Shown here: one piece after another, positions 1 through 11,206 of the stretch
Position numbering within the stretch: the stretch's first letter is position 1
How the letters are laid out: every line of letters begins with the position of its first letter
Origin: Escherichia phage 241
Direction: 5' to 3' (one strand)
DNA: 64,000 bases
Sequence record: OR924452
Position numbers and translations under genes: made by a program
The notes under the pieces: generated by a model
Seen by the model: the letters and a program-made list of their open reading frames with translations, nothing else
Told to the model about the DNA's origin: nothing
The model's database searches: none

Positions 1-726
1 GGTGATAGGACAGCCGTTGATCTTTTTCTTTCCGTGCTTGGTCACCCAGTCGTCACGGTTTGACAAGAATGCCGCGCCGTTGCGGTTGGACTCACTACCA
101 TCACGGTCACGCAACATGAACCCAGGGACGTCGATCTGATACATGTTGCCGAATACCATGTTCAGGGCTTCCAGGAAGTTCCAGGCGCTCAGGCGACCGA
201 AGTATTTCCACCCCATAGCCGTGTCCCATAGCTTAACGAATTGATCACTTTGCAGTTTAGTCTCCAACAACGGACGGAAAGCATCCATCTGAGTACGACC
301 AGCCAGCCAATCAATGTAGGACTGAACACACGGGATCATCTTCGATTTGCGATAGCGGCAATCTGTATCGAATCGCATACGATCGAAGTTCAGGTTATAC
401 CAATCACAGAATCGCTTGAACTCTTGTGGTGACTGAGGCGGTACAGGAAACTCACTATAAATCGTCCATGGGCCAATCCCATTATAACAACAGCCCCAAA
501 GGAACGCCATCCAGATCTTGCGCTCGATCTTCTCAAGCTGCGTAATGCCTTCAGTGACTTCAATCGCATAATCCATCAGACGAACTTGTTGGTTGTGTTC
601 TTCCGTATACGACAGCGCCTCCACCCATGCTTTGAGCAGATACATCCGATTCTCTGGCTTACGATAATCGATTGACAAATCAATTGGGTACTTCCATTCA
701 GCCGGAGGCGTATAACCTGTCGGCAT
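1..726 (-). CDS. Hypothetical protein, N-terminal 242 codons only; gene continues past the window start. Possibly a DNA-modification enzyme (speculative).
   Basis: Reverse-strand ATG at 724-726 opens a frame running to position 1 without a stop (translation begins MPTGYTPPAEWKYPIDL). Not in the ORF track because it is truncated. Confidence 0.5.
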   Translation of the reverse strand, partial: MPTGYTPPAEWKYPIDLSIDYRKPENRMYLLKAWVEALSYTEEHNQQVRLMDYAIEVTEGITQLEKIERKIWMAFLWGCCYNGIGPWTIYSEFPVPPQSPQEFKRFCDWYNLNFDRMRFDTDCRYRKSKMIPCVQSYIDWLAGRTQMDAFRPLLETKLQSDQFVKLWDTAMGWKYFGRLSAWNFLEALNMVFGNMYQIDVPGFMLRDRDGSESNRNGAAFLSNRDDWVTKHGKKKINGCPIT

Positions 727-727
727 T

Positions 728-1078
728 TTAGATAGATGCGTCATCCTTCACCTCGGCTTCGAGTTGGATATCTTCAGGGTTTAAAACGGGCTGGCCCAAA
801 GACCAAATTGGAAGGAACCGACGGTCATTGGATACTACCCAGATTTGCTTGGCGGTTTTCGTTTTTTCAGAAATATAATGCTGGGCATTAACCTGAGTCC
901 GTGCCAGCCCAATTTGCCGCCATGCACCGAAATCTTTAGAAGATGGATTGGTGTTCAGCTGGAATTGGGGAATGATTTTATTCTGTTCCGGATAATATCG
1001 GACAGCGTTAATCATATTGGCATCGCCACGATAGTCAACAGCAATAGCAATGGCATTGCGTGGAATAAGAATTTTCAT
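728..1078 (-). CDS. Hypothetical protein
   Basis: Track ORF 728..1102; internal ATG at 1078 is preceded by AAAGGA; tightly packed with neighbours on the same strand. Confidence 0.4.
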   Translation of the reverse strand: MKILIPRNAIAIAVDYRGDANMINAVRYYPEQNKIIPQFQLNTNPSSKDFGAWRQIGLARTQVNAQHYISEKTKTAKQIWVVSNDRRFLPIWSLGQPVLNPEDIQLEAEVKDDASI

Positions 1079-1079
1079 T

Positions 1080-1283
1080 TTAATTCCTTTTGAAACTTTC
1101 AATTATGTTGTAAACGAACGGCGTTAATAAAGCAACACCGCCCGAATAATATAACGCGTAAACATTCAATATTTCGGTTGAGTCTAATTCAACGATGCCC
1201 AAATATTTCATAACACCGACAAGCATAGCTGAAAAGCACATCACCAGACCGACGAACACAAAATATTTAGACATCTTTTTCAT
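1080..1283 (-). CDS. Small hydrophobic (membrane) protein
   Basis: 67-aa ORF with a hydrophobic core (FVFVGLVMCFSAMLVGV) filling the gap between two minus-strand genes. Confidence 0.35.
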   Translation of the reverse strand: MKKMSKYFVFVGLVMCFSAMLVGVMKYLGIVELDSTEILNVYALYYSGGVALLTPFVYNIIESFKRN

Positions 1284-1286
1284 TAT

Positions 1287-9006: not shown

Positions 9007-9035
9007 AAAGGGGCTTAATGCCCCTTTGTTTATTT
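9007..9035. terminator. Bidirectional terminator hairpin
   Basis: AAAGGGGCTTAATGCCCCTTTG with T-tracts on both sides, between convergent genes. Confidence 0.6.
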
Positions 9036-9488
9036 CCCATCCCAAAAGTCGTCTTCATCGTCTACTTCATCAAACGCAGAATCCAATTCTGCGTCAGAGT
9101 ACTCTGGTAGACGACCATTCTGTTTCAGATATTCAATCTCGTCATCTTCCAATTGAAGATCCGTTGCTATAAACAGTGCTCCGGTCTCTTCATCATGTTC
9201 AATGCTATAAGACGTATATTCAGAACCTTGAACTGTAATGATGATAGATGTTGGATCTTCTGGATCCACGTGAGCTTCAAACGGGATACCGTCAATTGGG
9301 GCGTCTTCTAAGAATGTTGCAAGGGCTACGGCAGCGCGGACAACATCCGTGCCCTGTACCGATGCATAAATTTCTTCTGCACCCGTTTCCCCGCGCTCAA
9401 AGAATTCAATCGTAGTTCCGTCTTGAACCCCAGTCCAGATAGGCATATCTGCTGGTGTATCGGCTTCAAATAATTTTGAAATTGGCAT
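9030..9488 (-). CDS. Highly acidic protein (candidate DNA mimic; function unknown)
   Basis: 152 aa, very high Asp/Glu content throughout; GAGGAAAC RBS; CCTAAATATCCCA promoter-like motif upstream. Confidence 0.55.
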   Translation of the reverse strand: MPISKLFEADTPADMPIWTGVQDGTTIEFFERGETGAEEIYASVQGTDVVRAAVALATFLEDAPIDGIPFEAHVDPEDPTSIIITVQGSEYTSYSIEHDEETGALFIATDLQLEDDEIEYLKQNGRLPEYSDAELDSAFDEVDDEDDFWDGK

Positions 9489-9523
9489 GTTCGTTTCCTC
9501 TATGGATAAACCTTATGGGATAT

Positions 9524-9973
9524 TTAGGCTTCTCTCTTCGCCAGCCCTGGTTTGAATACCACCATTTCTTCTACGTTATTGGCACTCATAGAGGCTATAG
9601 AATCGAACCCTTTGTTGACAAGTTCTTTCACATTATCATGTATCTTACCAGGCTTTATCCCCAACTCTCGCATTTTATTTTCCCACACCGAAACGTTATT
9701 AGAATCTATCACCAGAGTCTTCTTGGCCTTAACACGAAATGCCATGACAACAGGTTCACCAGATTGACGATAGCGAACGGCGTTTTCCGCGTAGATCTGC
9801 GCTTTTTCTGGATCCCCTGTCAGGTAAAATCCAGCACCCATCGTACCAGAGTCAGTCTGGCCAAATTTTTCAAAATCAAAGACGTCGAATTCAACATTCG
9901 ACCCATGATATAAAACAATATCCGTAAAATCGGGCAATGTTGATTCACGATAGAATTCTAGGAAGGTTTTCAT
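9524..9973 (-). CDS. Hypothetical protein; weak resemblance to H-Y-E type ADP-ribosyltransferase
   Basis: YHGS, GAGFYLT and VEEM motifs in the order seen in H-Y-E ARTs (speculative); promoter-hairpin motif immediately upstream. Confidence 0.5.
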   Translation of the reverse strand: MKTFLEFYRESTLPDFTDIVLYHGSNVEFDVFDFEKFGQTDSGTMGAGFYLTGDPEKAQIYAENAVRYRQSGEPVVMAFRVKAKKTLVIDSNNVSVWENKMRELGIKPGKIHDNVKELVNKGFDSIASMSANNVEEMVVFKPGLAKREA

Positions 9974-10012
9974 AGATACCCCACACTTGCTGTATGGGGT
10001 ATTTAGGAGGGA
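9974..10012 (-). promoter_or_regulatory. Late-promoter-like motif plus hairpin (CCTAAATACCCCAT ... TGGGGTAT) before the start codon
   Basis: Minus strand reads CCTAAATACCCCATACAGCAAGTGTGGGGTATCT-ATG; same element class as upstream of the tailspike genes. Confidence 0.5.
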
Positions 10013-11206
10013 TCAATCAGGGGTAAACTCGTTCACAGGAACTTGTTCCGGCATAGACAATTCGGGGCATGCTGCCTTCATTGGCTCAATATACGGCTTG
10101 CTACCAACAATCCAGAACAGAGCGTTTTCGTTGAGCAGTTCTGGCTTATGCTGTTGGATCCAGGTCATGACCTTGCCTTCATAGCGAGGATGCAACTCAA
10201 TATCGCCCCACTGGTAATCCATCAGGTCATTATAGCGAACCCAATTCGTTGTATGCAAATCCCAATGGTGTACTGCAAAGCGTGGGAGCGTTATCTCCGG
10301 CTCTCCCTTCTCGCGGATACCCATCAGGAGGCCAGCCAGCGAAACGCTCTTAGAGGCATGCTGAAGATCCTTCTTGCCGTACACATAATCTGGGTTGTCA
10401 TGATAGCAACGAGTAAAATCCGTTATGTGTGGAAGATTAGCTTGTTTTCCAATAATACGCAAACGGCTTTCAATAAAGTCCAGACGGTTGGGACCAATCC
10501 CGATCAGATATACATTTTTCAGATTCGGTTTCGGGTGCATAGCCAGCCCTGTCAAAATGCTGGTACAAGAATTACATGAACCAGCAGGAATGATCAGATC
10601 TGTGATATGGTCCGGAATGTTAGCAACCTGCTCGCCGCCCAGCATATGAAATCCTGCAATCCTCTCCGGAGAATGCAACGTATGATCCAGAGTGATCCCA
10701 TACTCTAGATAATATGCTTTTGGATTCTGCTGCTCAATCAATTTCTTGCAGCGCGGCTGGATAGTGCTGTTGTAACCCGAACCGACAAAGTTGAATTCGC
10801 TGCCGAACCATGCACTCATCTTAACCATATCGTGGTTCATACAGGTGGTTGGTTTGGTCGCGCCCAGGACTGTAGTTGTCTTGCCGCCGAAATGCCGTGA
10901 GACTGCTGTCGCCATAGGGGACTGCGGACTACCAACGACAGTACCATGGATAAGGTCTGGGGAGCCTCCGGCCTTGAGATGCTCAACCATGAGCCAGATG
11001 GCCTGACGAAGTTTACTGCCGTTGATGCCCTGCTTGCCATCTGTATAGTTGGACAGCGGCGCGAAGTAATCTTCACGCTTGAACCAGACCTGTTGATTGG
11101 TTTCAGGGTTGGCAACGAGTTCGCACGGGGTGTGCTTGTAGAGGTAGTCTTCCCAGTGGACCAGGTTGCGGTCGAGGGAAAGTGTATCGAAGATGGACTT
11201 GTTCAT
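10013..11206 (-). CDS. PLP-dependent enzyme, fold type II (ACC deaminase / D-cysteine desulfhydrase / Trp synthase beta family)
   Basis: Signature FKREDY...GINGSKLRQ matches the KREDx(n)GGNKxRK PLP-lysine motif; 397 aa. Confidence 0.75.
   Translation of the reverse strand: MNKSIFDTLSLDRNLVHWEDYLYKHTPCELVANPETNQQVWFKREDYFAPLSNYTDGKQGINGSKLRQAIWLMVEHLKAGGSPDLIHGTVVGSPQSPMATAVSRHFGGKTTTVLGATKPTTCMNHDMVKMSAWFGSEFNFVGSGYNSTIQPRCKKLIEQQNPKAYYLEYGITLDHTLHSPERIAGFHMLGGEQVANIPDHITDLIIPAGSCNSCTSILTGLAMHPKPNLKNVYLIGIGPNRLDFIESRLRIIGKQANLPHITDFTRCYHDNPDYVYGKKDLQHASKSVSLAGLLMGIREKGEPEITLPRFAVHHWDLHTTNWVRYNDLMDYQWGDIELHPRYEGKVMTWIQQHKPELLNENALFWIVGSKPYIEPMKAACPELSMPEQVPVNEFTPD

Follow-up and report, generated by a model that had tools for sequence, protein, structure and literature searches.

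Genes of Escherichia phage 241 predicted to carry out the post-replicative steps of a ViI-type thymidine hypermodification pathway

Which process is served by a P-loop kinase, a pyridoxal phosphate (PLP)-dependent enzyme, a phosphatase-like protein and a truncated enzyme-like open reading frame (ORF) that are encoded near the DNA polymerase gene of Escherichia phage 241 (sequence record OR924452)? We addressed this question in a stretch of 64,000 nucleotides of the genome, referred to here as the window. Our reading, to which we assign a probability of about 94%, is that the region would constitute the post-replicative part of a ViI-type thymidine hypermodification pathway, with 5-(2-aminoethoxy)methyl-deoxyuridine (5-NeOmdU) as its predicted product. 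The system itself is already known and has been characterised experimentally in a phage that is 98.5% identical over bases 1–11500. A first-pass annotation, made from the raw sequence, had proposed four ORFs on the strand of the polymerase (minus); all four are present where it had placed them, with better starts at 744 (not 726) and 3298 (not 3358). It had also proposed thymidine hypermodification by phosphorylation of 5-hydroxymethyl-deoxyuridine (5-hmdU) followed by substitution, with participation of the PLP enzyme, which is what has been shown for the ViI orthologues (96.5–99.6% identical); the raw-sequence reading had reached a pathway that needed two experimental papers to establish. 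The genes under discussion are the following:

1–744, minus strand: fragment of the putative serine:DNA transferase (ViI gp247 orthologue), assigned by Pfam ADDT and identity to Vi01_199
1287–2201, minus strand: predicted 5-hmdU DNA kinase ("kinase 2", ViI gp243 orthologue), assigned by Pfam HMUD2 and identity to Vi01_196
2516–3298 (ORF open to 3358), minus strand: NT5C-family HAD phosphatase homologue (gp239 orthologue), assigned by Pfam NT5C
10013–11206, minus strand: predicted PLP-dependent O-serinyl-thymidine decarboxylase (ViI gp226 orthologue), assigned by identity to Vi01_182, fold type II and K65
63807–64000, plus strand: N-terminal 64 residues of the gp160 orthologue, the same as in Vi01_130c

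The window is assigned to a Kuttervirus (Ackermannviridae) genome closely related to Salmonella phage ViI, for which Vi01 is another name. In a megablast search, bases 1–11500 matched 280 phage records whose hosts were enterobacteria typical of Ackermannviridae, the closest being the Salmonella phage vB_Hercules_SET (98.9% identity), the Escherichia phage ECML-4 (98.5%), Vi01 (98.5%) and Maynard (98.3%). The full 64-kb window aligned collinearly with Vi01 from approximately 151.8 kb down to 88.5 kb, and the Vi01 locus tags and accessions correspond one-to-one to Table 1 of Lee et al. ("Pathways of thymidine hypermodification"; PMC8989533). The window agrees with the ViI system (gp243/gp67, gp247 and gp226) in its genes, their order and their strand; the differences are that only fragments of gp247 and gp160 are visible in it, that ViI gp226 carries a 27-residue N-terminal extension which is missing here, and that the tailspike genes are not alike.

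The P-loop kinase recognised by the first-pass annotation (304 residues, starting MAKIIVIKGTSGTGKGT) carries the Walker A motif GTSGTGKGT at residues 9–17, a motif that is kept in the 40%-identical kinase homologue of Vibrio phage D504. Its residues 1–303 span the whole Pfam HMUD2 profile (PF18747, "5-hmdU DNA kinase 2"; positions 1–298 of 298) with a score of 559.5 bits (cut-off 25; E 2e-168), and 301 of the 304 residues (99.0%) are identical to ViI gp243 (Vi01_196; YP_004327565), which uses ATP to phosphorylate 5-hmdU within DNA (PMC8989533). We assign the kinase as the orthologue of gp243, a predicted 5-hmdU DNA kinase.

The enzyme-like ORF at 1–744 is truncated by the edge of the window: what remains is the N-terminal 248 of 411 residues. 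Its likely start at 744 is the annotated start of the Vi01 counterpart. The fragment matched the Pfam family ADDT (amino acid:DNA transferase; PF18724) with 171.7 bits (cut-off 26.2; E 2.6e-50; profile 2–195 of 232) and was identical to ViI gp247 (Vi01_199; YP_004327568) in 247 of 248 residues (99.6%), the single substitution being E121D. This identifies it as a putative amino acid:DNA transferase of aGPT-Pplase clade 2, the orthologue of gp247. Purified ViI gp247 adds L-serine to the phosphorylated base to give O-serinyl-thymidine, for which it needs a conserved cysteine and a neighbouring glutamate (PMC8989533). Given the near-identical fragment, serine specificity and O-linkage are inferred for the window transferase from gp247. 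Searches with tblastn from ViI gp247 did not reach gp46 of Pseudomonas phage PaMx11 or the M6 protein, and the catalytic cysteine was mapped instead by a three-way alignment of ViI gp247 with the homologues of Vibrio phage D504 (51% identical) and Mycobacterium phage Prince. E282 and C287 (ViI numbering) were invariant in this alignment and fit the published cysteine and neighbouring glutamate; both are present in Vi01, at positions past residue 248 and so beyond coordinate 1 of the window. The Prince gene (1300–3339) is a distant ADDT homologue labelled "DNA glycosylase" that lies between genes labelled "thymidine hydroxylase" and "adenylate kinase", which is the TET/JBP-dependent form of thymidine hypermodification that PMC8989533 mentions.

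The PLP enzyme (397 residues) is identical to ViI gp226 (Vi01_182; YP_004327553) in 383 positions (96.5%). It did not reach the gathering score of the Pfam family PALP (PF00291; 31.1 bits vs 35; E 2e-07; profile 6–202 of 295), while several of its homologues carry a precomputed PF00291 match, and we classify it as a putative divergent PALP member. Because the score was sub-threshold, the fold was tested directly; a single-sequence search of the PDB gave nothing useful for this protein, so the question was settled by structure prediction and Foldseek. The protein collection yielded 412 homologues, and an AlphaFold model built from an 89-sequence alignment reached a predicted local distance difference test score (pLDDT) of 93.2 and a predicted template modelling score (pTM) of 0.91. 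The best PDB matches of the model were D-cysteine desulfhydrase (4d8t; E 7e-12) and 1-aminocyclopropane-1-carboxylate (ACC) deaminase (1tzk and 1j0a), with serine/threonine dehydratases, CysM and TrpB next in rank; every one of these is a fold-type-II enzyme. The predicted structure thereby confirmed the fold-type-II (tryptophan-synthase-beta-like) assignment made in the first-pass annotation. K65, in the motif NGSK-LR, was invariant in 89 of 89 aligned homologues and equals K92 of ViI gp226. Purified gp226 is a yellow PLP protein with K92 as its predicted Schiff-base lysine, and it decarboxylates O-serinyl-thymidine to a 301-Da nucleoside (PMC8989533). We assign the window protein as the gp226 orthologue, a predicted O-serinyl-thymidine decarboxylase. 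It shares with D-cysteine desulfhydrase and ACC deaminase (4d8t, 1j0a) the fold and, according to the published structure-templated alignment of ViI gp226, the position of the Schiff-base lysine. Sequence identity is only 12–16% over the best 50 PDB matches, and the phage enzyme would decarboxylate a DNA-tethered amino acid, whereas the desulfhydrase/ACC deaminase family deaminates a free one.

An alternative explanation is that these are genes of ordinary metabolism, a guanylate or deoxynucleoside monophosphate (dNMP) kinase together with a threonine ammonia-lyase/deaminase-type gene, without any DNA modification. Public labels point this way: the Vi01 kinase is named "guanylate kinase" in RefSeq, the same label is attached to PHROG phrog_4409, and in UniRef the PLP enzyme has homologues entered as "threonine ammonia lyase" or "threonine deaminase". 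However, HMUD2 was the only Pfam match of the kinase (no second family at E ≤ 0.1), and no NCBIfam family was matched at E ≤ 0.001, including guanylate, dNMP and polynucleotide kinases. A dNMP or polynucleotide kinase, which the first-pass annotation had raised as a possibility, was thus not what the searches returned; nor is the PLP enzyme a metabolic moron, the other possibility raised there, since it is orthologous to the pathway decarboxylase gp226. Proteins 99% and 96.5% identical to the two enzymes act on DNA-borne 5-hmdU and on O-serinyl-thymidine, respectively (PMC8989533), so that the metabolic explanation is refuted for ViI in vitro. As both the family searches and the ViI biochemistry contradict it, we reject the guanylate kinase/threonine deaminase explanation, which we consider extremely unlikely for phage 241, and regard the two labels as automatic name transfer. 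Public labels of the ViI-type pathway genes are more widely wrong, empty or outdated: gp67 is labelled "terminase small subunit" in RefSeq, and gp247 and gp226 have "unknown function" in PHROGs.

Taken with the published work on ViI, the hypermodification reading predicts the following sequence of events. The phage DNA would be replicated with 5-hmdU replacing some or all of the thymidine, the family B polymerase of the same operon presumably incorporating 5-hmdUTP. The genes for upstream supply (dUMP hydroxymethylase, dNMP kinase, dUTPase, dCMP deaminase and gp67) are expected beyond the window, as in ViI. The kinase at 1287–2201 would then, with ATP, phosphorylate 5-hmdU in double-stranded DNA at its hydroxymethyl group, yielding 5-phosphomethyl-deoxyuridine, to which the transferase encoded from 744 would join free L-serine through its side-chain oxygen to give O-serinyl-thymidine. 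In the mechanism proposed for this step, the transferase cysteine attacks C6 of the base, the phosphate leaves, an exocyclic methylene forms, and serine attacks the methylene. Finally, the fold-type-II PLP enzyme, acting through lysine 65, would remove the serine carboxyl group and leave 5-NeOmdU. The kinase, transferase and decarboxylase steps of ViI have each been demonstrated in vitro with purified proteins (Lee et al. 2021 NAR, PMC8989533), and lysates containing gp67, gp160, gp226, gp243 and gp247 converted 5-hmdU DNA to 5-NeOmdU (Lee et al. 2018 PNAS, PMC5889632); gp67, like gp243, phosphorylates 5-hmdU in DNA (PMC8989533). Because the proteins are 96.5–99.6% identical to those of ViI, we infer that the same chemistry operates in phage 241.

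Approximately 40% of thymidine is 5-NeOmdU in ViI and in the ViI-like phages, namely CBA120, CBA6 and Vibrio phage 1.255.O. In phiHS2, another member of the Ackermannviridae, 16.4% of deoxythymidine (dT) is replaced and the DNA resisted all tested restriction enzymes except one (bioRxiv 10.64898/2026.05.19.726188); many restriction endonucleases are blocked in vitro by 5-NeOmdU. The DNA of phage 241 is very probably also partly substituted with 5-NeOmdU, and such substitution would affect restriction digestion, sequencing chemistry and susceptibility to host nucleases.

Several points weigh against our reading. It was drawn from the genes of phage 241 and not from its virion DNA. In single-sequence searches of the PDB, neither the kinase nor full-length ViI gp247 retrieved a relative. 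The hydroxymethylase, gp67, the 163 C-terminal residues of the transferase (with the catalytic Glu and Cys) and gp160 past residue 64 lie beyond the window, for which reason their integrity had to be assumed. Moreover, the decarboxylase is without the 27-residue N-terminal stretch of ViI gp226, from which it also departs over its first ~17 residues.

This last point bears on a second alternative, namely that the same enzyme families yield another end product, either stopping at O-serinyl-thymidine or using another amino acid. Besides the shortened and altered decarboxylase N-terminus, the E121D substitution in the transferase fragment could be read in this sense, as could the fact that related families differ in what they attach, with glycine in M6 and PaMx11 and putrescine in PhiW-14 (PMC8989533). 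The 5-NedU pathway of Pseudomonas phage M6 comprises the gp54 kinase, the gp51 glycine:DNA transferase, the gp53 radical-SAM isomerase and the gp52 PLP decarboxylase. Like the ViI type, it phosphorylates 5-hmdU in DNA, substitutes an amino acid and decarboxylates it with a homologous fold-type-II PLP enzyme; it differs in that glycine is attached via nitrogen, a radical-SAM isomerase is needed and the genes form one tight cluster, whereas the ViI type attaches serine via oxygen, has no radical-SAM enzyme and has scattered genes. Crystal structures are available for gp46 (PUGT) and gp47 of PaMx11 (PMC11472151). PaMx11 gp46 is likewise a clade 2 aGPT-Pplase, and its catalytic Cys247 attacks the pyrimidine by a mechanism analogous to the one put forward for gp247, but it transfers glycine, a flavin-dependent lyase rather than a PLP decarboxylase follows, and it is too distant from ViI gp247 for single-sequence detection. 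With regard to the decarboxylase, the start codon is shared with ViI gp226 and is followed immediately by an indel and replaced sequence (11160–11201 in the window vs 122 nt in Vi01). In the 89 homologues, 2 to 90 residues (median 18) precede the conserved core; the window protein is of the short, common type and retains K65 and an intact core, and both short and extended N-termini occur in closely related Kutterviruses. The shortening is regarded as without consequence. In addition, CBA120, whose NT5C-like protein is only 87.3% identical to that of the window, makes the same 301-Da nucleoside, as does Vibrio phage 1.255.O. Since these more divergent relatives make the same nucleoside, another end product in phage 241 is highly unlikely.

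A third alternative is that the pathway is incomplete or inactive in phage 241, the hydroxymethylase or the transferase C-terminus having been lost or damaged outside the window. That these parts do lie outside it speaks for this explanation, as does the variation in modification level between phiHS2 and ViI (16.4% vs ~40%). The first-pass annotation had suggested looking for a thymidylate-synthase-like dUMP hydroxymethylase, and none is present in the 64-kb window. In Vi01, a thyA-like gene (37163–38203; Thymidylat_synt, 54.4 bits) adjoins gp67 (Pfam HMUD1, 386.5 bits) and is grouped with it, dnk and dUTPase_2 at 36–39 kb, with the dCMP deaminase at 18.5 kb. Hercules_SET and ECML-4, the closest relatives, encode a 100% identical thyA-like protein, whose gene again lies beside the kinase. 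The genes within the window are intact and under evident purifying selection, with 96–100% protein identity, and a review describes the modification genes as conserved across Ackermannviridae (PMC11721090). Owing to this conservation, we consider it highly improbable that the pathway is incomplete.

At the far end of the window, position 63807 (plus strand) marks the start of gp160, a fifth gene associated with the pathway; its 64 visible residues are identical to Vi01_130c. Vi01 gp160 (385 of 407 residues scanned) matches Pfam HMUDK_hel (PF18723; 279.8 bits) and belongs to aGPT-Pplase clade 1; it was among the five ViI proteins of the lysate reconstitution (PMC5889632). Just upstream, at 62787–63737 (plus strand), the window encodes a MazG-like pyrophosphatase (phrog_2144, E 2e-132; no Pfam match), which is a candidate deoxynucleoside triphosphate (dNTP)-pool enzyme of the hypermodification system.

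The protein at 2516–3298, in which the first-pass annotation had seen a HAD-like DxDxT motif, does carry it as D23-V-D25-L-T27, with D191-D192 further downstream (within IDD), in register with the DMD and LIDD motifs of human mitochondrial deoxyribonucleotidase. It matched Pfam NT5C (PF06941) above the gathering score (33 bits vs 24.8), with coverage of profile positions 56–143 of 180 only, and weakly matched structures of mitochondrial 5'(3')-deoxyribonucleotidase (E 0.011). Translation probably starts at 3298, as annotated for Vi01, since a gene beginning at 3358 would run 68 nt into its upstream neighbour. We assign the protein as a genuine NT5C-family 5'(3')-deoxyribonucleotidase homologue with apparently intact catalytic motifs. 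Full-length homologues were found in 277 records, which are essentially those matching the locus, and distant partial homologues in many other phage groups. Vibrio phage D504 encodes a 26%-identical homologue (E 5e-20) in the same slot between polymerase and kinase, so that the slot is conserved even though the D504 kinase and transferase are only 40% and 51% identical. It is this conserved position that suggests a link of the phosphatase to the pathway, and nothing else does; it was not one of the five ViI reconstitution proteins (PMC5889632). As a dTMPase encoded by the phage is a classical feature of the metabolism of 5-hmdU phages (PMC8989533), the most economical guess is a pool-level nucleotidase, and the protein may degrade dTMP or dUMP. 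It is doubtful, although conceivable, that the phosphatase is an unrecognised component which sets the partial modification (about 16–40% of T). It could do so either as a dTMP/dUMP nucleotidase shifting the dTTP:5-hmdUTP pool or as a phosphatase reversing 5-phosphomethyl-deoxyuridine, and the gp160 paralogue may be involved alongside it in setting the modification level.

The first-pass annotation had described the genes as a set near the polymerase. This holds for the kinase and the transferase, which lie in the polymerase operon; the set is not contiguous, however, and the PLP gene belongs to a separate unit. The remaining genes of the operon are:

728–1078, minus strand: gp245 orthologue between transferase and kinase (116 residues; 100% identical to Vi01_198; phrog_4163; no Pfam family)
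1080–1283, minus strand: gp244 orthologue, small and hydrophobic (67 residues; 100% identical to Vi01_197; phrog_4514; labelled "membrane protein" in several relatives)
2201–2506, minus strand: DUF7254 protein (gp240 orthologue; Pfam DUF7254, 159 bits)
3291–3635, minus strand: putative DUF7292 lipoprotein (gp237 orthologue) between polymerase and NT5C-like gene (DUF7292, 179.7 bits; 100% identical to Vi01_193)
3696–6692, minus strand: family B (T4 gp43-like) DNA polymerase (998 of 998 residues identical to the Vi01 polymerase; type B NCBIfam matches; SLYP and DTDS motifs)

The minus-strand order is polymerase, DUF7292 protein (which carries a lipoprotein label in relatives), NT5C-like phosphatase, DUF7254 protein, kinase, two small proteins and transferase. 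Downstream of the polymerase the operon is tightly packed, with gaps or overlaps of ≤17 nt; the end of the DUF7254 gene and the first base of the kinase gene are the same base (2201). The PLP gene lies in its own minus-strand unit, which terminates at a strong hairpin (9004–9030), and a convergent plus-strand block (6712–8994) separates this unit from the polymerase/kinase operon. As the polymerase, the plus-strand block and the hairpin part the PLP gene from the kinase/transferase operon, the hypermodification genes are scattered and do not form one cluster, an arrangement that has been noted for the ViI-type family (PMC11721090). A scan for terminator-like sites found 19 (10.8 expected), a moderate enrichment, and marked the hairpin at 9004–9030 as strong and bidirectional. 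Sigma-70 promoter sites were not enriched (22 vs 19.2 expected), which makes that scan uninformative on transcription units.

We found no case for the DUF7254 protein as a pathway member. It occurs in 273 phage records with the same host genera as the records matching the locus itself, to which it is restricted, and it has no counterpart in Vibrio phage D504, where the small ORF at the same position showed no similarity to it. Directly downstream of the decarboxylase gene, at 9524–9973 (minus strand), lies an ORF of 149 residues that matches ART-PolyVal (ADP-ribosyltransferase of polyvalent proteins; 43 bits) and DUF3990 and is 98.7% identical to Vi01_183.

Elsewhere in the window, the alignment to Vi01 diverged mainly in the tRNA region, in the tailspike genes and in a stretch at ~51.4–54 kb. 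The latter (51366–53960) contains small ORFs between the major capsid gene region and replication genes, which are 87–92% identical to Vi01 or unalignable; its flanks are 94–99% identical. Three tRNA genes (Ile-GAT, Tyr-GTA and Met-CAT) are located at 13069–14667 (minus strand) in surroundings that are patchily alignable to Vi01. Among them, at 13827–14261 (minus strand), is an ORF for a 144-residue PD-(D/E)XK endonuclease (Pfam PDDEXK_5, 90 bits), where approximately 540 bp of the window stand in place of approximately 190 bp of Vi01; the ORF, which ViI does not have, looks like a mobile or homing-type insertion. The tailspike module (25232–32204, plus strand) comprises large ORFs of 667, 747 and 826 residues, two of the three with a Tail_spike_N domain. 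All three are mostly unalignable to Vi01, and positions 25000–33000 were covered to at most 78% by any phage record in the collection, a divergence that suggests mosaic receptor-binding proteins and a host range unlike that of ViI.

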